Origin: an uncultured Clostridium sp.
GTDB taxonomy: Bacteria > Bacillota > Clostridia > TANB77 > CAG-508
Direction of reading: 5' to 3'
Assembly (NCBI GenBank): GCA_964608075.1
Contig: CAZSMG010000003.1
Span: forward strand, 1-54,389
Length of the DNA: 54,389 bases
The position numbers and the translations under genes are program-made. A model generated the notes under the pieces. The model made no database searches, was not told where the DNA came from, and saw nothing but the letters and a program-made list of their open reading frames with translations. How positions within the stretch are numbered: position 1 is the stretch's first letter; every line of letters begins with the position of its first letter. Below are positions 7,805 to 27,112 of this stretch, piece after piece.

Positions 7805-9949
7805 ATGAAAATTGAAAAGATAAAAAATATCTTATATAAAGTAATGCTTGTAATTCTATTTATATTAGCTTCATATGTTACATATTGTTCGGTATTTAAT
7901 ATTTATGATTCAAAAGAAGTTTTAAGCCCAATAGTCATTATATTAGGAACAATAGTAAGTATATGTTTATTTATTGCTTTAAAAAAAGCATTTACTAAAT
8001 TACAAGAAAAGACTTCAAATAAAATAGCTGTAATTATTTGCATTATATTTTTTATTGCATTAATAATATTTGGAAAAGTAGTAATGGCAATTCCAGGTTA
8101 TGATGCAGCAGACTTACAACAACAAGCAATAAAAATGTTAGATAATAGTGGCAAGTTTAATGATGAGGAATATTTTTCAATATATACAAATCAAGTGCCA
8201 GCAACAATATTAATATATTATATATATAAAATTGGAATTATACTAGGCATATCAAATTTAAGAATGTTTGCAACTATAATAAATGCATTATTTATAGCTA
8301 TAACAGCATTTTTTACATATATGTCTGTTAAAAAACTAAAAGACTATAAGTTGGCATTAATAACATTAGTATTTTTTGTACTAAATCCAATATTTTATTT
8401 ATACACATCTTATTATTATACAGACACATTGTGCATGCCATTTGCTGCAACTGCAATGTATCTGTTTATATCTGCTATAAAATCTGATAATAGGAAAAGG
8501 GCAATATTATCATTAGTTGGAAGCGGAATAATAGTAATGCTTGGATTTAAAATAAGAGCAGTTCTTATAATATTGCCAGTAGCTATGATATTACAAATAA
8601 TATTAAACAATAAAATTAACAAAAAAACATTGATAAATTTATCAAGTATTATCATAGGTGCTTTTATTGGAGTTATAATATATACATTAATTGCAATTCC
8701 TTTTAATGTACCAAAAGATAAAGATACAGAATTTCCTGCATTACATTGGGTAATGATAGGATTAAACAAAGAAACTGATGGAGCATGGACAGATACAGAA
8801 TATAAATACACAAAAAAATATGAAACAGCAGAAACAAAAAAACAAGCAGATTTAAAAATAATAAAGAAAAGACTAAAAGAATTAGGAATAAAAGGATATT
8901 ATGATTTATCTAAAGTAAAGCTTTCGCAAACATGGTCAAATGGACAATATCATGCATGGGATCATTTAGACAATGTAGAAGATTTTAACATAGTTTATGA
9001 ATATGTAAACGGAAATAAACAAAAATTTATGCTTTATTATTTACAAATTTGTAAGACATTATTATTGCTATTGTTTACAATATCTGTAGCAAAAGAAATA
9101 TTAAAAAAAGATGAAGAAAAATTAAATGGTTTTATTTATATATCAATATTTGGAGCATTTTTATTTTATATGCTATGGGAAGTAATGTGCAGATATAGTT
9201 TATCATTTTTACCATGGATGATTCTCGCATTTGGAACAGGAATAACTATATTAGAAGATATGTTAAATAAATGTAAAAAAATGATATACAAAGATAAACC
9301 AGTAGTTATAGGCAAAGCAGAAATAGTAATTGTACTTATATCTGCAACAATTGTTTTACTTGCTTATAACTATCCAAAATATACAATACAAGAAAATATA
9401 TATAAGGATAAAGTAATTGTTCAAAATAAAGTAAGAGGTTTAGAACTTAAAAAAATATCAAATAAGAAAATAGAGCAAACTTTTAAAACTTCTAAAGAAT
9501 TTAATATAATTTCTATAGAATTTTTAAAAGGATATTCAAAAAATGAAACAACTACAACACATTACAAGTTTACTTTGTATGATGAAAATAAAAGTATTTT
9601 AAATGAGCAAGACTTTACAAGTGGTGATGTAAAAAGTTGGAGGTCAAAAGAATTTAAGTTTAATACTCAAATTCCAAATGGAGAAAAACAATATACTTTT
9701 GAAATAACATCAAGTGATGCAACAGAAGATAATTGTATAGGTATATCATCATATTTTCAAGAATATTACTCAGTTTACAAAGATGGAACTTTAAAAGTTA
9801 ATGATGAAGAAATAAAAGATGCAGATTTAAGATTTATGGTTAAAAACGAAAATAGCAGAACTTATACAAGTAAAATGTTTTATGTAATAATATCTATAAT
9901 GATATTGATAATAGAGGGAATGTTATTTTATATAATTTATAAGAATTGA
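7805..9949 (+). CDS. GT-C fold membrane glycosyltransferase (ArnT/PMT-like) with extracytoplasmic C-terminal domain
   Basis: ATG at 7805 follows AAGAGGAAAA; the track start at 7784 is TTG. At least 10 hydrophobic helices occupy the first ~520 aa. A ~170-aa soluble beta-rich region and a final TM helix follow. The gene sits directly downstream of the GtrB-like gene. Confidence 0.65.
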   Translation: MKIEKIKNILYKVMLVILFILASYVTYCSVFNIYDSKEVLSPIVIILGTIVSICLFIALKKAFTKLQEKTSNKIAVIICIIFFIALIIFGKVVMAIPGYDAADLQQQAIKMLDNSGKFNDEEYFSIYTNQVPATILIYYIYKIGIILGISNLRMFATIINALFIAITAFFTYMSVKKLKDYKLALITLVFFVLNPIFYLYTSYYYTDTLCMPFAATAMYLFISAIKSDNRKRAILSLVGSGIIVMLGFKIRAVLIILPVAMILQIILNNKINKKTLINLSSIIIGAFIGVIIYTLIAIPFNVPKDKDTEFPALHWVMIGLNKETDGAWTDTEYKYTKKYETAETKKQADLKIIKKRLKELGIKGYYDLSKVKLSQTWSNGQYHAWDHLDNVEDFNIVYEYVNGNKQKFMLYYLQICKTLLLLLFTISVAKEILKKDEEKLNGFIYISIFGAFLFYMLWEVMCRYSLSFLPWMILAFGTGITILEDMLNKCKKMIYKDKPVVIGKAEIVIVLISATIVLLAYNYPKYTIQENIYKDKVIVQNKVRGLELKKISNKKIEQTFKTSKEFNIISIEFLKGYSKNETTTTHYKFTLYDENKSILNEQDFTSGDVKSWRSKEFKFNTQIPNGEKQYTFEITSSDATEDNCIGISSYFQEYYSVYKDGTLKVNDEEIKDADLRFMVKNENSRTYTSKMFYVIISIMILIIEGMLFYIIYKN

Positions 9950-9967
9950 AAATATACTAAAAAGTCA

Positions 9968-9996
9968 TTGTGAAAAATTGGAAAATAAAGTAAAAT
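9968..9996 (+). promoter_or_regulatory. promoter of small-peptide (toxin-like) transcript 1 (TTGTGA-17-TAAAAT)
   Basis: -35 and -10 hexamers with a 17-nt spacer, immediately upstream of the conserved leader. Confidence 0.55.
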
Positions 9997-10006
9997 AAAT
10001 ACATCC

Positions 10007-10025
10007 TTTTCAAAGGAAATCTTTG
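10007..10025 (+). repeat. conserved 19-nt leader TTTTCAAAGGAAATCTTTG, copy 1
   Basis: Identical to 25431-25449. Contains a CAAAG-GAAAT-CTTTG hairpin. The adjacent TCCTTT (10004-10009) is complementary to the SD region AAAGGA (10028-10033). Confidence 0.8.
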
Positions 10026-10043
10026 GGAAAGGAGGTACATAAA

Positions 10044-10130
10044 ATGTCATCTTTTGACTTAATTTGGCGTTTAATTGTTTTGCTACTATTAAGTATCAAG
10101 AATAATGATGACCGGAACAATGAAGACTAG
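10044..10130 (+). CDS. 28-aa hydrophobic peptide, candidate type I toxin (MSSFDLIWRLIVLLLLSIKNNDDRNNED)
   Basis: Strong SD GGAAAGGAGGT 7 nt upstream of the ATG. One TM-length hydrophobic stretch plus an acidic tail. Has its own promoter and terminator. Below the ORF-track cutoff. Confidence 0.65.
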   Translation: MSSFDLIWRLIVLLLLSIKNNDDRNNED

Positions 10131-10144
10131 AAACTAGTCTTAGT

Positions 10145-10176
10145 CTAGGTAGTCTGCCAACTGCCTAGATTTTTTT
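10145..10176 (+). terminator. rho-independent terminator of peptide transcript 1
   Basis: CTAGGTAG-tctgccaa-CTGCCTAG stem (one G-U pair) followed by T7. A GACTAG-AAA-CTAGTC hairpin precedes it at 10125-10139. Confidence 0.75.
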
Positions 10177-10180
10177 ACGC

Positions 10181-10251
10181 AAAAAAAAAGATATAGACTG
10201 CCATCTATACCTTTGTACATAATTGTCATCTCTTTGACTTTTGCTTAAGCT
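10181..10251 (-). ncRNA. candidate antisense sRNA (antitoxin RNA 1), about 70 nt; ends approximate
   Basis: Minus-strand consensus promoter at 10258-10286. Minus-strand hairpin TATAGA-tggcag-TCTATA followed by a U-run (complement of A9 at 10181-10189). Carries the complement of 10224-10240, which matches the peptide's start-codon region. Confidence 0.55.
10224..10240 (+). repeat. direct repeat of the peptide-1 translation initiation region
   Basis: TGTCATCTCTTTGACTT matches TGTCATCTTTTGACTT at 10045-10060 (16 nt identical, one inserted C). Confidence 0.85.
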
Positions 10252-10257
10252 AAATAT

Positions 10258-10286
10258 AGTATACTATATTTTTTAGTATATGTCAA
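10258..10286 (-). promoter_or_regulatory. minus-strand sigma-A promoter (TTGACA-17-TATACT) driving sRNA 1
   Basis: Reverse complement reads TTGACAtatactaaaaaatatagTATACT. A near-identical element recurs at 27358-27385. Confidence 0.7.
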
Positions 10287-10373
10287 ATTTTTACTAAAAA
10301 TTCATATATAAAAAATATTACTGAAAATATTCAAAAATACTATGGAAAAGTATGTCAAAAAAGCCCAAAAATA

Positions 10374-10402
10374 TTGACAAATAACACATAAAAAACTATA
10401 AT
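10374..10402 (+). promoter_or_regulatory. consensus sigma-A promoter (TTGACA-17-TATAAT) for the dlt-like operon
   Basis: Perfect hexamers, 52 nt upstream of the ATG at 10454. Confidence 0.7.
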
Positions 10403-10453
10403 TAAAAAGGTTGTTGCAAGATAAAAGTATAATTTGTGAAAATAGGAGGAAAA

Positions 10454-11962
10454 ATGAAAAGAACTATATTAGAAATTTTAGAGGAAACAGCTAATAAATT
10501 TCCAGATAAAGTAATTTATGAAGATATTAATCGTGAAATAACATACAAAGATTATATTAAAAATTGTAAAAAAATAGGAAGTGCATTAGCAGAGAAAATA
10601 CAAGACATAAATAAACCAATAGCAATATATATAGATCGTTCTGTTACATGCTTAGAAACAATGATGGGTGTAACATATAGTGGAAATTATTTTGCAGTTT
10701 TAGATATAAAATCACCTAAAGAGAGAAATAATTTAATAATAAATACATTACCAGATATTTCAATCATTGTAGAAAAGAAAAATATTGAAAAACTTAAAGA
10801 CTTAGACTTTAAAGGAAAAATATACATATATGAAGAATTAATAGAAAATAAAATTGACGAAGAAAGATTAACTCAAATAAGAAATAAAATAATTGATACA
10901 GATCCAATGTATGCACAATTTACATCAGGATCAACAGGTGTTCCTAAAGGAATAATAATATGCCATCGTTCTGTAATGGCATATGCTTACAATATAAAAG
11001 AAACATTTAAAATAGATGAACATACTAAATTTGGTAATGAACCACCATTTTATTTCAGTATGTCAACATTAGAAATATATACAACAATGATTAGTGGAGC
11101 AACAATGGTAATTATACCTAAAATGTATTTTTCATTTCCAATTAAATTGTTAGAATTTTTAAAAGAAAAGAAAATTAATACAATATATTGGGTACCATCT
11201 GTTCTTTGTATTGTTGCTAATATGAAAGCATTAGATGAAATGGAATTACCAGATTTAAAAAAAGTAATGTTTGCTGGAGAAGTAATGCCAGTAAAACAAT
11301 TAAATATATGGATAGAACACTTACCAAATGCAATGTTTGCAAACTTATGTGGGCCAACAGAAATAACAGATATATGTACATATTATATTGTTGATAGAAA
11401 ATTTGATAATTCAGAAAGTCTTCCAATAGGTAAAGCATGTTACAATTGTGATGTATTAATAATAAAAGAAGATGGAACTAAAGCAAAAGTAGGAGAAGAA
11501 GGAGAACTTTGCGTAAGAGGTTCATTCTTAGCATTAGGTTATTATAATAATCCAGAAAAAACAAGCCAAGCATTTATACAAAATCCATTAAATACTGCAT
11601 ATCCTGAAATAATATATAAAACAGGTGATATTGTAAAAGAAAATGAAAGAGGAGAAATAATTTATCTTTCTAGAAAAGATTTTCAAATAAAACATATGGG
11701 ATATAGAATAGAATTAGGAGAAATAGAAAATGCAATTAATAATATAGAAGGAATTATATCATGTGCATGTGTATATGATACTGAAAACAAAAAGATTGTT
11801 TTATATTATCAAGGGAAAGATCTTTCAGAAAAAGAATTGTTATCACAAGCAAAAACAAAATTGCCAAATTATATGTGTCCTAACGAAATACATAAATTGG
11901 ATCAAATGATTTATAATGCAAATGGAAAAATTGACAAAAATAAATTAAAATCAATAAATTAA
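10454..11962 (+). CDS. amino-acid adenylation enzyme, DltA-like (D-alanine--carrier protein ligase family)
   Basis: ATG at 10454 follows AGGAGGA. ANL-superfamily core motifs: FTSGSTGVPKG, GELCVRGSFLALGYY, YKTGD, FQIKHMGYRIELGEIE, NGKIDKNKL. About 500 aa, a stand-alone A domain like DltA. Confidence 0.75.
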   Translation: MKRTILEILEETANKFPDKVIYEDINREITYKDYIKNCKKIGSALAEKIQDINKPIAIYIDRSVTCLETMMGVTYSGNYFAVLDIKSPKERNNLIINTLPDISIIVEKKNIEKLKDLDFKGKIYIYEELIENKIDEERLTQIRNKIIDTDPMYAQFTSGSTGVPKGIIICHRSVMAYAYNIKETFKIDEHTKFGNEPPFYFSMSTLEIYTTMISGATMVIIPKMYFSFPIKLLEFLKEKKINTIYWVPSVLCIVANMKALDEMELPDLKKVMFAGEVMPVKQLNIWIEHLPNAMFANLCGPTEITDICTYYIVDRKFDNSESLPIGKACYNCDVLIIKEDGTKAKVGEEGELCVRGSFLALGYYNNPEKTSQAFIQNPLNTAYPEIIYKTGDIVKENERGEIIYLSRKDFQIKHMGYRIELGEIENAINNIEGIISCACVYDTENKKIVLYYQGKDLSEKELLSQAKTKLPNYMCPNEIHKLDQMIYNANGKIDKNKLKSIN

Positions 11963-11982
11963 AATATATGGGGGTAAAAATT

Positions 11983-12210
11983 ATGGAGAAATTATTAGAA
12001 ATATTAAAAGGAATTAAACCAGAAGTTGACTTTGAAGGTAATGAACATTTAATTGATAATGAAGAATTAGACTCTTTATCAATAGTAGAAGTCGTATCAG
12101 CAATTGATGATGAATTTGATGTAGAAATAGGTGTAACAGATATTATACCAGAAAACTTTAATTCAGTAGAAGCAATTTGGAATTTAATTCAAAAATTATT
12201 AGATGAATAA
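11983..12210 (+). CDS. acyl/D-alanyl carrier protein (DltC-like)
   Basis: 75 aa, acidic, with phosphopantetheine-attachment Ser in ELDSLSIVE. ATG at 11983 follows GGGGGT. Confidence 0.75.
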   Translation: MEKLLEILKGIKPEVDFEGNEHLIDNEELDSLSIVEVVSAIDDEFDVEIGVTDIIPENFNSVEAIWNLIQKLLDE

Positions 12211-12244
12211 TTAACTAAAAATAAATAGAAAAAAGGGGATAAAA

Positions 12245-13837
12245 ATGACAATAAATTCATTAAGCTTTATAGCTTTTGTAGCAATAGTTGCTATCATTTA
12301 TTTTATTTTCCCTAAAAAAGCTAGATGGGTAGTTTTATTAGTTGCAAACTATGTATTCTATTCAATTTGTAGCAATTGGCTAATTATTTATATGTTAGTA
12401 ACAACACTATCAATATATTTAGTTGCACTAAAAATGGGAAAAATAGATGTTAAAACAAAAGAAATAGTAAAAAAAGAAGAAAATAGAGAAAAGAAAAAAG
12501 AGATAAAAAATAAAGCAAAGACAAAGAAAAAATGGCTAGTTGCAATAGCTGTAATTATAAACTTTGGAATTTTAATTTATTTAAAATACTCTAATTTCTT
12601 ATCTGAAAATATAAATGGATTATTTAATATAGTAAAAATACCAATAGAAATACCATTTAGACAAATATTGCTTCCACTTGGAATATCTTATTATACATTA
12701 CAAGCAATTAGCTATGTTATAGATGTATATCGTGGAAAATATTTACCAGAAAAACATTTAGGTAAATTAGCATTATTTGTATCATTCTTTCCACAAATGG
12801 TCGAAGGACCAATTGGCAGATATGATGAATTAGGACACCAATTATATGAGCCACATAAATTTGAATATACAAGAGTAAAATTTGGAATTCAATTAATGCT
12901 GTGGGGATATTTTAAAAAGATGGTAATAGCAGATAGAGCAGGATTATTTGTTAATGAGGTATTTGCAAATTATAGTCAATATTTAGGAATACCAATATTC
13001 TTTGCAGCAGCTTTATATACTATTCAAATATATGCGGAATTTTCAGGATGTATTGATATAGTAAGAGGTGTAGCACAAATACTTGGTATAAATATGGCAG
13101 AAAACTTTAAAAGACCATTTTTCTCAAAATCAGTTCAAGAGTTTTGGAGAAGATGGCATATAACACTTGGAACATGGTTTAAAGACTACATATTTTATTC
13201 AGTATCTTTTTCAAAATTAACACAAAACATTACAACATTTGCTAAAAAAGTATTTAAGACAAGTTATATTGCTAAACTTATACCAGCAATATTTGCACTA
13301 TTTTTTGTATGGTTTGGAAATGGTATTTGGCATGGAGCAAGCTGGAAATACATTTGTTATGGAATGTATTATTATGTAATAATGGTATTAGGAATGGTAT
13401 TTGAACCATTAATGAATAAAATATTAAAATTATTAAAAATAAACAAAGAAACATTTAGCTATAGTTTTATGCAAATGGTAAGAACAACATTATTTGTAAT
13501 AATAGGAATGCTATTATTTAGATCTCCAGATTTAAATATTTTTGGACAAATGTTTACAGGAATATTTACAAGAGAACATTTAGAAATGTTATCAAATGGA
13601 AAAATATTTGAAATAGGATTAACGCAAGCTGATTTTGTTGTAATAGTAATTGGTGTAATAATAATGTTTGTAGTAGGTATTTTGCAAGAGCAAGGACATA
13701 AATTAAGAGAAGATATTTCAAAACAAAATCTGCCTTTTAGATGGATATTATATTATTCTATAATATTTGCAATTATTATATTTGGAATATATGGACCAGG
13801 CTATGTAGCAACAGACTTTATATATGGTCAATTTTAG
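12245..13837 (+). CDS. MBOAT family O-acyltransferase (DltB/AlgI-like)
   Basis: Polytopic membrane protein. MBOAT signature: FWRRWHITLGTWFKDYIFY with catalytic His, and WHGASW. Confidence 0.85.
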   Translation: MTINSLSFIAFVAIVAIIYFIFPKKARWVVLLVANYVFYSICSNWLIIYMLVTTLSIYLVALKMGKIDVKTKEIVKKEENREKKKEIKNKAKTKKKWLVAIAVIINFGILIYLKYSNFLSENINGLFNIVKIPIEIPFRQILLPLGISYYTLQAISYVIDVYRGKYLPEKHLGKLALFVSFFPQMVEGPIGRYDELGHQLYEPHKFEYTRVKFGIQLMLWGYFKKMVIADRAGLFVNEVFANYSQYLGIPIFFAAALYTIQIYAEFSGCIDIVRGVAQILGINMAENFKRPFFSKSVQEFWRRWHITLGTWFKDYIFYSVSFSKLTQNITTFAKKVFKTSYIAKLIPAIFALFFVWFGNGIWHGASWKYICYGMYYYVIMVLGMVFEPLMNKILKLLKINKETFSYSFMQMVRTTLFVIIGMLLFRSPDLNIFGQMFTGIFTREHLEMLSNGKIFEIGLTQADFVVIVIGVIIMFVVGILQEQGHKLREDISKQNLPFRWILYYSIIFAIIIFGIYGPGYVATDFIYGQF

Positions 13838-13848
13838 GGGAGTTAAAA

Positions 13849-15003
13849 ATGGAAAACGAAAATAAAGATACAATAAATAAACCAAATAATATAAATGGCG
13901 AAAGCATTGGGGGAGTACACACACACACACACACACACAAGCATATTTATCAAAGTTCCGGAAGAGTAATAAAATGTATAATATTTTTTATAATAGGATT
14001 ATTTATATTTGGGAAATTAACACATATATTTGTTCCAAAATGGGTATTTCAAACAGATCCTGCTACTCCAAGAATAAAAGGATTTTATTCAGAAGAATCT
14101 AATACGATGGATGTTTTAGTAATAGGATCTAGTGGAATAGGTAGAGGATATTCACCTGTTACTGTTTGGAATAAATATGGAATTACTAGTTATAACTTAG
14201 GAACTGCATATCAAACAATGCCTTGTGCTTATTATTTACTAAAAGAAGCTTTAAAATATCAAAATCCTAAAGTTGTTGTTTTAGATATGGATGCTACTTT
14301 TATTGATTATAAAACCCCAGAAGAAACATATAGAAAATTATTTGATAATATGAAACTTGATAATATTAAATTAGAAGCTATTAATGATAGAAATATAGGT
14401 ATAGATGATAAATTATCATATGTTTTTCCATTATTAAGATTTCACTCAAGATGGAATAAATTAGAAGAAAATGATTTTAAAAAGTCACTAAAATCAGAAT
14501 ATAATAAAGTTTCATATAAAGGTATGTCAATGAACATAGATGTTAAACCATATATAGATAATAAAAAGTATATGGAAGATAAAGGAGAGAAAGCTGAAAT
14601 TTTAGAAAAAAATCTTAATTATATTGTTAAGATAATTGATTTATGCGAAAAAAATAATATAAAATTACTAATGACAGAATTACCATCTCCAAATTCATGG
14701 TCATTAGCTAGAAGTAAATCTACTACAGAACTTGCAAATAAATATAAAATAGAATTTATAGATTTTAATTTGCCCCAAATGCAAGAAAAATTGAAACTTG
14801 ATTGGAAAAAACATACTCATGATAAAGGTTCTCATTTAAATGTAGCTGGTGCAGAAATAGTTTCTAAGTACATAGGTAAGGTTTTATCTGAAAAATATAA
14901 TTGTGAAAATCATAAAGAAGATAAAGAAATTTCAACTAAATGGAAAAAAGAAGTTAAAAGATATGAGCATAACAAAGTAAAATTAAAAAATGATTTAAAA
15001 TAA
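13849..15003 (+). CDS. membrane-anchored SGNH/DltD-like protein; carries an in-frame (AC)11 tract
   Basis: ATG at 13849 follows AGGGGAG; the track's longer ORF overlaps the MBOAT gene. N-terminal tail plus one TM helix. VLVIGSSG (GxS block) and DKGSHLNVAGAE (Asp/His block). Occupies the fourth position of the dlt-like operon. Confidence 0.6.
   Translation: MENENKDTINKPNNINGESIGGVHTHTHTHKHIYQSSGRVIKCIIFFIIGLFIFGKLTHIFVPKWVFQTDPATPRIKGFYSEESNTMDVLVIGSSGIGRGYSPVTVWNKYGITSYNLGTAYQTMPCAYYLLKEALKYQNPKVVVLDMDATFIDYKTPEETYRKLFDNMKLDNIKLEAINDRNIGIDDKLSYVFPLLRFHSRWNKLEENDFKKSLKSEYNKVSYKGMSMNIDVKPYIDNKKYMEDKGEKAEILEKNLNYIVKIIDLCEKNNIKLLMTELPSPNSWSLARSKSTTELANKYKIEFIDFNLPQMQEKLKLDWKKHTHDKGSHLNVAGAEIVSKYIGKVLSEKYNCENHKEDKEISTKWKKEVKRYEHNKVKLKNDLK
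13917..13938 (+). repeat. (AC)11 dinucleotide simple-sequence repeat inside coding sequence
   Basis: ACACACACACACACACACACAC encodes HTHTHTH at codons 23-30 of the DltD-like gene. Confidence 0.95.
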
Positions 15004-25358: not shown

Positions 25359-25390
25359 TGAAAATGTCATTTTGTGTCGAACGAAAAATA

Positions 25391-25420
25391 TTGTAAGACT
25401 ATTAACTTTAAATATATAAT
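25391..25420 (+). promoter_or_regulatory. promoter of small-peptide transcript 2 (TTGTAA-18-TATAAT)
   Basis: Hexamers lie immediately upstream of the conserved 19-nt leader. Confidence 0.5.
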
Positions 25421-25430
25421 ATTATCATTC

Positions 25431-25449
25431 TTTTCAAAGGAAATCTTTG
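25431..25449 (+). repeat. conserved 19-nt leader TTTTCAAAGGAAATCTTTG, copy 2
   Basis: Identical to 10007-10025. Confidence 0.8.
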
Positions 25450-25460
25450 TGAGTGGTGTT

Positions 25461-25565
25461 ATGAGTAATTCTGATCTAGTTTTGAAGTTAGTAGAAATGC
25501 TTCTTGAATCTGAAAAGAAACAAAAAGATAATATTAATTATCAAGAGAGCAAAAGAAAAAATTAG
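25461..25565 (+). CDS. 34-aa small peptide, candidate (possibly degenerate) type I toxin paralog (MSNSDLVLKLVEMLLESEKKQKDNINYQESKRKN)
   Basis: ATG at 25461, inside the longer track ORF 25374-25565. Leader, terminator and convergent-promoter layout match the 10044 peptide. It is less hydrophobic than peptide 1. Confidence 0.45.
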   Translation: MSNSDLVLKLVEMLLESEKKQKDNINYQESKRKN

Positions 25566-25582
25566 TACATAACTAATTAAAA

Positions 25583-25617
25583 AGAGATAGTAATTCGCAG
25601 TTACTATCTCTTTTTTT
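25583..25617. terminator. bidirectional rho-independent terminator
   Basis: Perfect 11-bp stem AGAGATAGTAA / TTACTATCTCT with a 7-nt loop. An A-run lies upstream and T7 downstream. Confidence 0.85.
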
Positions 25618-25621
25618 GATA

Positions 25622-25646
25622 TTATGATAACTCTAATCTTATTTTG
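25622..25646 (+). repeat. direct repeat of the peptide-2 translation initiation region
   Basis: TTATGATAACTCTAATCTTATTTTG versus TTATGAGTAATTCTGATCTAGTTTTG (25459-25484). 21 of 25 positions are identical with one gap. Three of the four differences would give G-U pairs in an RNA duplex. Confidence 0.7.
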
Positions 25647-25664
25647 TTATCTTAAACTACTTAT

Positions 25665-25693
25665 ATTCTACTACTTAAAACTTAAATTGTCAA
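25665..25693 (-). promoter_or_regulatory. minus-strand sigma-A promoter (TTGACA-17-TAGAAT) driving sRNA 2
   Basis: Reverse complement reads TTGACAatttaagttttaagtagTAGAAT. Confidence 0.6.
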
Positions 25694-25758
25694 ACTTATT
25701 AAGATATATTCAGTAAAAATTTACTTTTTTAATTTAATCTTTAATTTAAGAACAAATG

Positions 25759-25816: not shown

Positions 25817-26011
25817 GTGAATTTAACAGAACTAAAAAAAGAAATTATAAAAAATACAATAGAAGGTTATAAAGTAAAAACTAATTTCATTTCATGTGAT
25901 TTTTTAGTGCAAATTGGAGGATTTATTATCATTGCGAAACCAATTTATTTAGAAAAAGAAGTAAGGTATGAATTTAGTTGGATACACAATTTTTATCAAA
26001 TAAAGAAGTGA
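25817..26011 (+). CDS. hypothetical small protein (64 aa)
   Basis: GTG start follows AAGGACGTG. No family recognised. Overlaps the next ORF by 34 nt in another frame. Confidence 0.4.
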   Translation: MNLTELKKEIIKNTIEGYKVKTNFISCDFLVQIGGFIIIAKPIYLEKEVRYEFSWIHNFYQIKK

Positions 26012-26202
26012 CTTACAAAGAAATAGTTATGATAAAAAATATAATTGATTTATTAAACAAAAATAAAAAGTTAGCTTTATCAAAGTTGAAAAAATGGAAA
26101 ATTGAAGAATATATAGAAGACAAAAGACAAAGAGAACTGAGAAGTGAGCAAATGTTAGAAGCATTGAAGAGTGCTTTTGTAAACAGAACAAAATCTATAT
26201 GA
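25978..26202 (+). CDS. hypothetical small protein (74 aa, charged/helical)
   Basis: TTG start 10 nt after AAGGT. No family recognised. Could be the downstream part of a frameshifted gene together with 25817-26011. Confidence 0.35.
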   Translation: MDTQFLSNKEVTYKEIVMIKNIIDLLNKNKKLALSKLKKWKIEEYIEDKRQRELRSEQMLEALKSAFVNRTKSI

Positions 26203-26242
26203 GTTTTTAAAATTGTATATATTTATAAGGAGGTACTTTTAT

Positions 26243-27112
26243 ATGAATAGTAATAACAAATTAGAAACAATATCAAATCTTTTTGAAGGAATAGAAATAA
26301 GAAGTATATGGAATACAGAAAAAGAAGAATATTTTTTTAGTGTAGTTGATGTTATTAGTGCATTGACAGATAGTAAAATTCCAAGGAATTATTGGAGTGA
26401 TTTAAAACGAAAATTAATAGAAGAGGGAAGTGAGTTGCACGAAAAAATCGTGCAACTGAAATTAAAATCAAATAAAGATGGAAAAAGATATATTACAGAT
26501 ACCTTAGATACGGAAGGAATCATAAGATTAATAGAGTCAGTTCCAAGTTCAAAGGCAGAACCTTTCAAATTATGGCTTGCATCTTTAGGTAAAGAAAGAA
26601 TAGATGAGGTCTTTGATCCAGAAATAGCAGTTAATAGAGCAATTGATTATTATAGAAGTAAAGGATATTCAGATAAATGGATTGAATCAAGACTTAAAGG
26701 AATATTGGATAGAAAAAGATTGACTGATATTTGGAAAGAAAATGGTATTAAAGAAAATTACGAATATGCAGTTTTAACAAATGATATATATAAAACTTGG
26801 TCTGGAATGAAAGCATCAGAATATAAAAATTATAAAAATATTAGGAAAGAGTCTTTAAGAGATAATATGACAGATGTAGAGGTAGCTCTTACAGATTTAG
26901 GAGAAATTGCAACTCGTGAACTTGCAAAAAAGCATAGACCACAAGGATTAAAAGCAAATAGAAAGATTGCAAAGGAAGGAGGAGAAGTTGCTAAAACGGC
27001 TCGTGATGATTTAGAACAAAAACTTGGAGAAACAATTATTAGTAAAGAAAATAGATTGAATTATAAATATTTAGAAGATAATAAAAAACTAGAAGATAAA
27101 AATAGTAATTAA
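26243..27112 (+). CDS. Bro-N domain protein with DinD-like C-terminal region (phage antirepressor-like)
   Basis: ATG at 26243 follows AAGGAGGT. N-terminal Bro-N-like FEGIEIRSIWNTEKEEYFFSVVDVISALTDS. C-terminus SLRDNMTDVEVALTDLGEIATRE parallels the DinD-like fragment at 2-328. Confidence 0.7.
   Translation: MNSNNKLETISNLFEGIEIRSIWNTEKEEYFFSVVDVISALTDSKIPRNYWSDLKRKLIEEGSELHEKIVQLKLKSNKDGKRYITDTLDTEGIIRLIESVPSSKAEPFKLWLASLGKERIDEVFDPEIAVNRAIDYYRSKGYSDKWIESRLKGILDRKRLTDIWKENGIKENYEYAVLTNDIYKTWSGMKASEYKNYKNIRKESLRDNMTDVEVALTDLGEIATRELAKKHRPQGLKANRKIAKEGGEVAKTARDDLEQKLGETIISKENRLNYKYLEDNKKLEDKNSN

Follow-up and report, generated by a model that had tools for sequence, protein, structure and literature searches.

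An apparently undescribed family of type I toxin-antitoxin-like modules in gut Bacillota, represented by an intact copy between two cell-envelope operons of an uncultured Clostridium sp.

Most descriptions of type I toxin-antitoxin modules come from cultured Proteobacteria and from a few Firmicutes. Here we analyse a 54,389-nucleotide (nt) stretch of DNA from an uncultured Clostridium sp. (contig CAZSMG010000003.1; hereafter the window), a small part of which, positions 9963-10287, appears to be an intact member of a large, unannotated and apparently undescribed family of type I toxin-antitoxin-like modules, belonging to low-G+C gut Bacillota and their integrative mobilizable elements. The plus strand of this module would encode the messenger RNA (mRNA) of a 28-residue peptide (RNA I), and the minus strand a convergent small antisense RNA (RNA II), in a layout resembling the par locus of the Enterococcus faecalis plasmid pAD1. 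The arrangement of the parts, their conservation, the covariation at both predicted contact sites of the two RNAs, a helix that would sequester the Shine-Dalgarno (SD) sequence and purifying selection on the peptide, all of them read from sequences, point to an antisense-regulated small-peptide module, to which we assign a probability of about 0.95. Likeness to known loci further suggests that it is a type I toxin-antitoxin system in the functional sense (about 0.7). A previous interpretation of the window from its letters (the sequence-only reading) had proposed a self-contained peptide gene with a convergent antisense small RNA at this position, and this proposal holds, as about 106 further instances of the arrangement, with cognate start-region matches, come from more than 60 contexts. 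The family comprises hundreds of peptide variants, none of which is named, and no RNA or protein model for it is found in the libraries searched. New type I families are in themselves unsurprising, but this one is large, unannotated, linked to mobile elements and unusually clean in its two-site covariation. The parts of this module, which we call copy 1, are as follows (coordinates are those of the window).

9963-10287, no strand assigned: copy 1 as a whole, bounded by its match to the family profile (nhmmer, E = 1.9e-59; profile built from 61 distinct modules)
9968-9996, plus strand: promoter of RNA I, the peptide mRNA; -35 box TTGTGA at 9968-9973, 17-nt spacer, -10 box TAAAAT at 9991-9996; score 9/12
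10003-10036, plus strand: 5' leader helix, formed by pairing of UCCUUUUC at the 5' end with GGAAAGGA in the SD; minimum free energy -11 kcal/mol
10006-10025, plus strand: conserved leader 20-mer, CTTTTCAAAGGAAATCTTTG
10026-10036, plus strand: SD, GGAAAGGAGGT
10035-10060, plus strand: direct repeat DR, the translation-initiation region (end of the SD, ATG, codons 1-6), predicted target of the RNA II 5' part
10044-10130, plus strand: open reading frame (ORF) of the 28-residue peptide, MSSFDLIWRLIVLLLLSIKNNDDRNNED; 28 codons, from ATG at 10044 to TAG at 10130
10125-10139, plus strand: small hairpin GACTAG-AAA-CTAGTC containing the stop codon; predicted fold
10144-10176, plus strand: T1, intrinsic terminator of RNA I; stem 10144-10152/10161-10169, loop UCUGCCAA with CUGCCA at 10154-10159, T7 at 10170-10176
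10181-10210, minus strand: T2, intrinsic terminator of RNA II; hairpin 10190-10210, loop (U)GGCA(G), 9 U at 10181-10189 (A9 on the plus strand); -10.6 kcal/mol
10215-10240, minus strand: DR', the RNA II 5' part, antisense to the peptide initiation region; repeat of DR, predicted duplex
10258-10286, minus strand: promoter of RNA II; -35 box TTGACA at 10286-10281, 17-nt spacer, -10 box TATACT at 10263-10258; score 11/12

The two RNAs are predicted to meet at two sites, one of which is the start-codon region. A direct repeat of this region, pointed out in the sequence-only reading, is real and proves longer than was claimed (10035-10060 against 10215-10240), with 24 of 27 columns identical, a score that none of 2000 dinucleotide shuffles reaches. 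The duplex between the 5' part of RNA II and the initiation region of copy 1, whose prediction had been proposed as a check, comes to -30.1 kcal/mol (z = -7.2; 0 of 1000 shuffles). Covariation between the repeat and the start region, likewise proposed as a check, is found among the relatives: cognate pairs score 31.1-31.6 and non-cognate pairs 13.3-14.2, and in the permutation test, for which one representative was taken from each of 15 classes (31.1 vs 14.2), the cognate value was reached in 0 of 200,000 permutations. Relatives that conserve the region but not the ORF or the complementarity had been named as evidence that would tell against the module. The ORF is kept in about 100 copies and the repeats covary; in one member (L212, discussed below) the ORF is kept and most of the repeat is lost.

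The other site is formed by the terminator loops. Read on the plus strand, the loops of T1 and T2 are identical over 6-11 nt in every family member, and hence the loop of RNA I is complementary to that of RNA II (cognate mean 7.1 vs non-cognate 3.0-3.2). Eighteen loop variants occur, each matched by its partner (permutation test: cognate 7.11 vs non-cognate 3.22; 0 of 200,000 permutations). In copy 1 the loops are CUGCCA and UGGCAG, the T2 loop being the complement of CUGCCA (10198-10203 on the plus strand), and a kissing interaction between them is predicted. These loops, the strongest par-like feature of the module, had been overlooked in the sequence-only reading, as had a second copy at 25389-25695. 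The terminators themselves had been recognized: the plus-strand hairpin followed by T7 is present and is the sole terminator match within 9500-10800 (10142-10171 in the scan, then T7; fold -15.5 kcal/mol), and the minus-strand hairpin with its 9-U tail is present as well. In copy 1 and most members they are two adjacent hairpins with unrelated stems, of which only the loops are complementary. Back-to-back terminators had been presented as a trait of par, which is incorrect: pAD1 par has a single, shared bidirectional terminator (PMC7472228), and thus the paired terminators are a difference from par.

Both promoters of copy 1, proposed previously as TTGTGA-17-TAAAAT on the plus strand and TTGACA-17-TATACT on the minus strand, are present. 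Because the window has a G+C content of 23%, single promoter-like matches in copy 1 are not significant alone, a consensus scan having found 13 of them where 10.1 were expected from shuffles; the two promoters owe their significance to conservation across the family. That of RNA I coincides in position with the family consensus aTTGTtt-17-TATAAT. For RNA II, the -35 box (TGTCAA on the plus strand) is found at its expected spacing in 68 of the 70 distinct modules, and the -10 box takes only the forms TATACT, TGnTATAAT and TGnTATACT. The RNA II promoter looks the stronger of the two, since that of RNA I combines a conserved TATAAT with a poor -35 box, TTGTnn. Transcription of copy 1 is thus predicted to be convergent, as in par, with RNA I starting near 10003 and extending for about 175 nt, and RNA II starting near 10251 and reaching 10181, i.e. 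about 71 nt.

The suggestion that the 5' end of the leader pairs with the SD agrees with the minimum-energy fold of copy 1, where this outer helix encloses an inner hairpin, CAAAG-GAAAU-CUUUG. Folding predicts the outer helix for seven of the eight leader variants, compensatory changes occurring among them, and copy 2 is the exception. Moreover, two divergent leaders (L217 and L222) keep both helices, with the inner hairpin changed from CAAAG/CUUUG to CUAGA/UCUAG. About 106 copies share an identical leader 20-mer despite saturated synonymous sites in the coding regions. Pairing of the SD with an anti-SD-like sequence explains the outer helix, and the inner hairpin is itself SD-like; alternative pairing of the 5' end with the inner AAAGGA, leading to metastable folds, is possible. 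At the other end of the ORF, most family members have a hairpin in the stop-codon region, with differing stems (mean -4.2 vs -1.0 kcal/mol for shuffles), for which mRNA stability, processing or ribosome release are possible roles. RNAalifold gave no structure on a MAFFT alignment of 18 predicted RNA II sequences because hairpins of variable length were misaligned, and it was replaced by folds of each sequence and the tests of cognate against non-cognate pairs. The whole window has no Rfam match at gathering thresholds, and a search of 9850-10500 at E <= 10 returned only sub-threshold chance matches (best 24 bits, against a gathering score of 47).

The strong SD and the 28-codon ORF are both present as described previously, and comparison of coding sequences shows that the peptide core is under purifying selection. 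In the hydrophobic subgroup (group A; 19 coding sequences), the proportions of synonymous (pS) and nonsynonymous (pN) differences at codons 8-17 are 0.62 and 0.075 (pN/pS 0.12), and in the core of the amphipathic subgroup C pN/pS is 0.06. The tails of the hydrophobic subgroup, which are polar and acidic, are under relaxed selection (pN/pS 0.65); that of copy 1, KNNDDRNNED, is charged. The peptides share the motif M-x-x-[FY]-[DE]-L-[IV]-W-x-L with a conserved Trp at position 8. Their genes start with ATG, GTG or TTG, the weak codons GTG and TTG being frequent. Nonsense or frameshift changes occur in some copies; in L157, L193, L106, L083, L155, L182 and L112 a premature stop or frameshift interrupts the ORF, which may reflect real inactivation or assembly error.

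The sequence-only reading saw no homology to Fst and suspected a new peptide family, and indeed no known toxin family was matched in profile libraries or the PDB. Searches of Pfam, NCBIfam, PHROGs and PADLOC at E <= 10 gave no family for the peptides of copy 1, copy 2, the hydrophobic subgroup or group C, and three longer peptides of subgroup D gave stray matches far below cut-off to unrelated families, none of them a toxin family. No chain in the PDB was matched, and hence neither Fst nor PepA1. Literature searches with peptide strings and the leader sequence retrieved no paper, and a topical search nothing on the family.

To delimit the family, the leader 20-mer was used as bait, which yielded one IMG/VR viral contig and 117 metagenome stretches, mostly from the human gut. 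The full layout is present in about 106 of those stretches, which together encode 45 distinct peptides, 26-44 residues long. A peptide profile matched 498 proteins at E <= 0.01 in 5.8e9, all of them unnamed or "hypothetical" and none with a Pfam domain; members retrieved in this way lack the exact 20-mer, yet all RNA features are kept. The neighbours of 109 modules form 189 protein clusters in more than 60 distinct arrangements. One context recurs, namely a tyrosine integrase, a Sigma70_r4-type helix-turn-helix (HTH) protein, DUF6076, the module, an XRE-type HTH protein, cargo and a Mob_Pre relaxase, which together make up an integrative mobilizable element. Elsewhere, copies are flanked by housekeeping genes, such as those for a radical SAM enzyme and an aminopeptidase, for prolyl-tRNA synthetase or for fatty-acid synthesis. 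Distant blastn searches of INPHARED phages and PLSDB plasmids gave no match. The module does not look like a transposable unit: inspection for terminal repeats or target-site duplications showed no repeats at the edges of the conserved block, which extends to about 10 nt upstream of the RNA I -35 box and about 22 nt beyond that of RNA II. In two members (L111 and L121), at least about 90 nt are inserted between the RNA I and RNA II terminators, and as the loops of L111 still match (TCGCTA), the two genes are separable without losing loop complementarity.

A further, paralogous copy lies within the window itself and was found by scanning the window with the mRNA region, of which a 27-nt leader segment is repeated at 25427-25453. 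Its parts are as follows.

25389-25695, no strand assigned: whole module, copy 2 (nhmmer, E = 4.1e-18)
25391-25420, plus strand: promoter
25430-25449, plus strand: leader 20-mer, identical to that of copy 1; expected 0.01 per window
25462-25566, plus strand: ORF of 34 codons, MSNSDLVLKLVEMLLESEKKQKDNINYQESKRKN, whose product aligns with the copy 1 peptide
25579-25615: single bidirectional terminator
About 25621-25648: DR', which repeats the start-codon region of copy 2 itself and is unlike copy 1 in sequence
25693-25665, minus strand: promoter, score 11/12

The cognate duplex of copy 2 reaches -30.9 kcal/mol (z = -5.7), similar to the -30.1 kcal/mol of copy 1, whereas the cross pairs between the two copies reach only -10.4 and -15.8 kcal/mol. 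The RNA pairs of the two copies are therefore predicted to be orthogonal. Copy 2 is flanked on one side by a gene for a secreted CAP/fn3 protein and on the other by small genes and then a Bro-N domain gene. The segment adjoining it, 25817-27112, contains ORFs of 64 and 74 residues (no Pfam match) together with the Bro-N domain protein, sits in the middle of a teichoic-acid/glycosylation gene cluster and is possibly a mobile-element remnant. With copies 1 and 2, two "empty" intergenic regions of the window find an explanation.

Taken together, these features suggest the following mode of action. A weak promoter would produce RNA I, whose first nucleotides would pair with the SD so that the 28-residue peptide is poorly translated, while the stronger convergent promoter would produce RNA II. 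The most plausible first contact between the two RNAs would be between the complementary terminator loops, CUGCCA with UGGCAG, after which the 5' 26 nt of RNA II would zip onto RNA I from the SD edge to codon 6. The zipped duplex would block initiation and would probably mark the RNAs for cleavage. If RNA II, which is expected to be labile, were lost or outpaced, e.g. upon loss of the element, the peptide would be made and would harm the cell, most likely at the membrane. Tentatively, this can be extended to a family of two-site antisense "addiction" modules whose interchangeable loop and start-region sequences (at least 18 and at least 15 classes) act as address codes that let several copies, e.g. 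the two of the window, coexist without cross-talk, and whose peptides would hit a specific target through the [FY][DE]LIW.L helix and not cause generic membrane damage; we regard this extension as doubtful. A scaffold with many orthogonal pairs of loops and repeats, and with both split and shared terminators, amounts to a natural experiment in RNA specificity, and it bears on the evolution of par-type regulation and on how multiple copies avoid cross-talk.

Known par-like loci combine convergent promoters, complementary terminator loops, repeats that pair onto the initiation region and a 5' helix that hides the SD (PMC7472228). The present module resembles pAD1 par of E. faecalis (RNA I/Fst and RNA II) and par-like loci such as chromosomal parEF0409 in its convergent promoters and in a short antisense RNA whose gene does not lie opposite the target. 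Direct repeats again render the 5' part of the antisense RNA complementary to the initiation region of the toxin, the complementary stem-loops of the terminators offer a second contact, an intramolecular 5' helix would hide the SD, and the peptide, of about 30 residues, is hydrophobic in its N-terminal part and ends in a charged, acidic tail (PMC7472228). The occurrence of copies on mobile elements as well as between chromosomal operons is another trait of par-like loci (PMC7472228), and copy 2 of the window shares with pAD1 par the single bidirectional terminator. In contrast to pAD1 par, two terminator hairpins with unrelated stems occur in copy 1 and most other members, a single repeat of about 25 nt with indels takes the place of the named DRa and DRb, and it is the extreme 5' end that builds the SD-sequestering leader helix, so that 5'-SL and 5'-UH appear merged in their roles. 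Only 6 of the 18 loop variants contain the YUNR motif, which is also missing in some par homologues (PMC7472228). The peptide differs from Fst in having no PXXXG motif (none of 29 aligned family peptides has a proline in the conserved N-terminal 20 residues), no match to an Fst/Ldr profile and a conserved Trp at position 8, and large subgroups of the family are amphipathic, not hydrophobic; a charged tail at the C terminus is a point of likeness with the Fst/Ldr toxin superfamily.

Other type I systems are less close in their layout. SprA1/SprA1AS (PepA1) of Staphylococcus aureus and other Fst/Ldr loci resemble the module in that a small membrane-type peptide is repressed at initiation by an RNA encoded nearby, through a non-overlapping complementary region (PMC7472228). 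However, no sequence relation was found, and the geometry of kissing loops and repeats is nearer to that of pAD1 par. TisB of Escherichia coli, the toxin of the SOS-controlled type I system TisB/IstR-1, is an amphipathic helix of about 29 residues with a charged stripe. It is relevant to the amphipathic subgroups and copy 2, although it is unrelated in sequence and its RNA architecture is different. The type I systems of Clostridioides difficile consist of a small peptide gene and a convergent antisense RNA, the antitoxin overlapping the toxin transcript as a true cis-antisense RNA, and their toxins are longer and lysine-rich. In contrast, the genes of the present module do not overlap, complementarity comes from the repeat and the loops, and no similarity appears in profile libraries. 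The two do share their setting, i.e. low-G+C anaerobic gut Firmicutes and a link to prophages or mobile regions (PMC5961336).

Genomically, copy 1 sits between two co-directional cell-envelope operons, which its terminators separate. Upstream are genes for a GT2 glycosyltransferase and a 721-residue PMT_2-type membrane glycosyltransferase, and downstream dltA-, dltC- and dltB-like genes. The 486-nt gap described previously is correct up to a GTG at 10436, but measures 504 nt up to the likelier ATG at 10454. The dltA-like gene has its own promoter, TTGACA-17-TATAAT, at 10374-10402 (12/12); we considered it as a third part of the module and rejected this, as it lies outside the conserved block and an equivalent is missing in many copies. 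The closest species representative is a "Clostridia bacterium" metagenome-assembled genome (L002; DltA identity 78%), in which the orthologous 718-residue upstream gene stops 3 nt before the dltA start and the module is absent. Hence the region of about 500 nt is lineage-specific, and its insertion seems to have split one operon, with dltA gaining its own promoter; the glycosyltransferase and dlt-like operons would thereby have been uncoupled through an inserted element. Among 80 related dltA loci, neither the intergenic sequence nor the peptide was found by blastn, tblastn or the family profile (noise only). Exact-sequence look-ups of a 35-residue form of the ORF and of the 721-residue neighbour gave no record, and a tRNA scan of the window none.

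Several observations weigh against the view that the module is a toxin-antitoxin system, or that it conforms to the par scheme. We infer toxicity of the peptide and antitoxin activity of RNA II purely by analogy. The sequence-only reading had described a hydrophobic stretch of transmembrane length followed by an acidic tail, as in Fst-type toxins. The tail is there, but the stretch measures only about 15 residues and includes D5 and R9, with an uncharged run of 9 and a best 19-residue Kyte-Doolittle value of 1.58. In addition, the Fst-type description suits part of the family only, as copy 2 and the whole of subgroups C and D are amphipathic, highly charged helices (Kyte-Doolittle 0.1-0.4). 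A generic membrane-spanning toxin is therefore not assured. Moreover, the N-terminal [FY][DE]LIW.L is common to hydrophobic and amphipathic subgroups, and thus a specific protein target or a non-toxic role is possible. Copy 2 has a weak SD and has lost the sequestering 5' helix, for which reason it may be decaying, or it may be a divergent subtype. In L212 (peptide P0092, read in 21 contigs), the 43-residue ORF, the RNA I promoter and the complementary loops are intact, whereas a deletion of about 25 nt in the segment 2640-2760 removes the RNA II -10 box and 5' end, together with most of the repeat; this is either a decaying copy or a sign that the peptide subgroup is tolerated without full antisense control, and it is awkward if the peptide is lethal. 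At the RNA level, the loop-loop duplex of copy 1 alone is not significant (70 of 1000 shuffles do as well) and becomes convincing only family-wide, and the YUNR U-turn is absent from the copy 1 loop.

One may therefore argue that the product of this antisense-regulated gene is not a toxin but a regulatory or accessory peptide of the mobile element, which binds a host or element protein through its [FY][DE]LIW.L helix and whose dose is set by RNA II. The absence of a membrane-spanning stretch in subgroups C and D and copy 2, the confinement of conservation to a short N-terminal motif found in all subgroups, the survival of the ORF beside a damaged RNA II gene in L212 and the lack of similarity to known toxin families in the libraries searched would all fit. 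Nevertheless, we consider this unlikely. Three layers of repression, namely SD sequestration, weak start codons and a stronger, two-site antisense RNA, are typical for toxic products and unusual for harmless ones, the position beside repressor genes in integrative mobilizable elements fits a stabilization role, amphipathic type I toxins such as TisB exist, and the ORF is disrupted in several copies.

Explanations that dispense with an antisense-controlled peptide fare worse than a toxin-antitoxin module. A cassette that works mainly through its RNA, serving as bidirectional terminator or insulator, with an antisense pair shielding the operons against read-through and an incidental ORF, would suit a site between co-directional operons that are contiguous in L002, and terminators are supplied for both directions. 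It is nonetheless improbable, given an ORF retained in about 100 copies with saturated synonymous sites and low pN/pS (0.12 and 0.06), a strong SD with a dedicated, conserved sequestering helix, and an antisense RNA aimed exactly at the initiation region. The location directly upstream of dltA-dltC-dltB homologues might instead suggest a leader or accessory gene of the dlt-like operon, encoding a small membrane protein of the DltX type or else an attenuator peptide, the more so as small dltX genes precede dltA in some Firmicutes. Yet L002 has the same neighbours without a gap, the sequence is missing from all 80 related dltA loci, and more than 60 unrelated contexts contain the same module; moreover, the module carries a terminator of its own, dltA is served by a separate 12/12 promoter, and the peptide has no Pfam match at all, and so none to a DltX model if Pfam has one. 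Both dlt identities were rejected on these grounds, and we hold any dlt role to be very improbable. As for a chance constellation of promoter-, terminator- and repeat-like sequences, AT-rich DNA (23% G+C) does provide promoter-like matches about as often as shuffles do (13 vs 10.1); however, the further copy within the window, over 100 homologues with the same order of parts, two covariation signals unmatched in 200,000 permutations each and an ORF under purifying selection exclude it.

Some minor observations concern the neighbourhoods of the modules. Contigs L200-L205 from ENA gut metagenomes are module-bearing integrative mobilizable elements with exchangeable cargo beside the module, which is a Tad4-family protein (Pfam match PF25186) in some and a 309-residue protein plus a DUF3137 protein in others. 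In the window, no dltX-like gene and no recognizable dltD were seen in the dlt-like cluster downstream of copy 1 (10454-15003), which has the order dltA, dltC, dltB (a 530-residue MBOAT protein) and then a 420-residue ORF without Pfam match that, as listed, overlaps the end of the dltB-like ORF by 97 nt. The only public contig with an identical DltA (L001, Logan contig SRR15970572_83515) starts at window position 10246, inside the RNA II 5' region and in sequence common to many family members, and its start looks like a repeat-induced assembly break.

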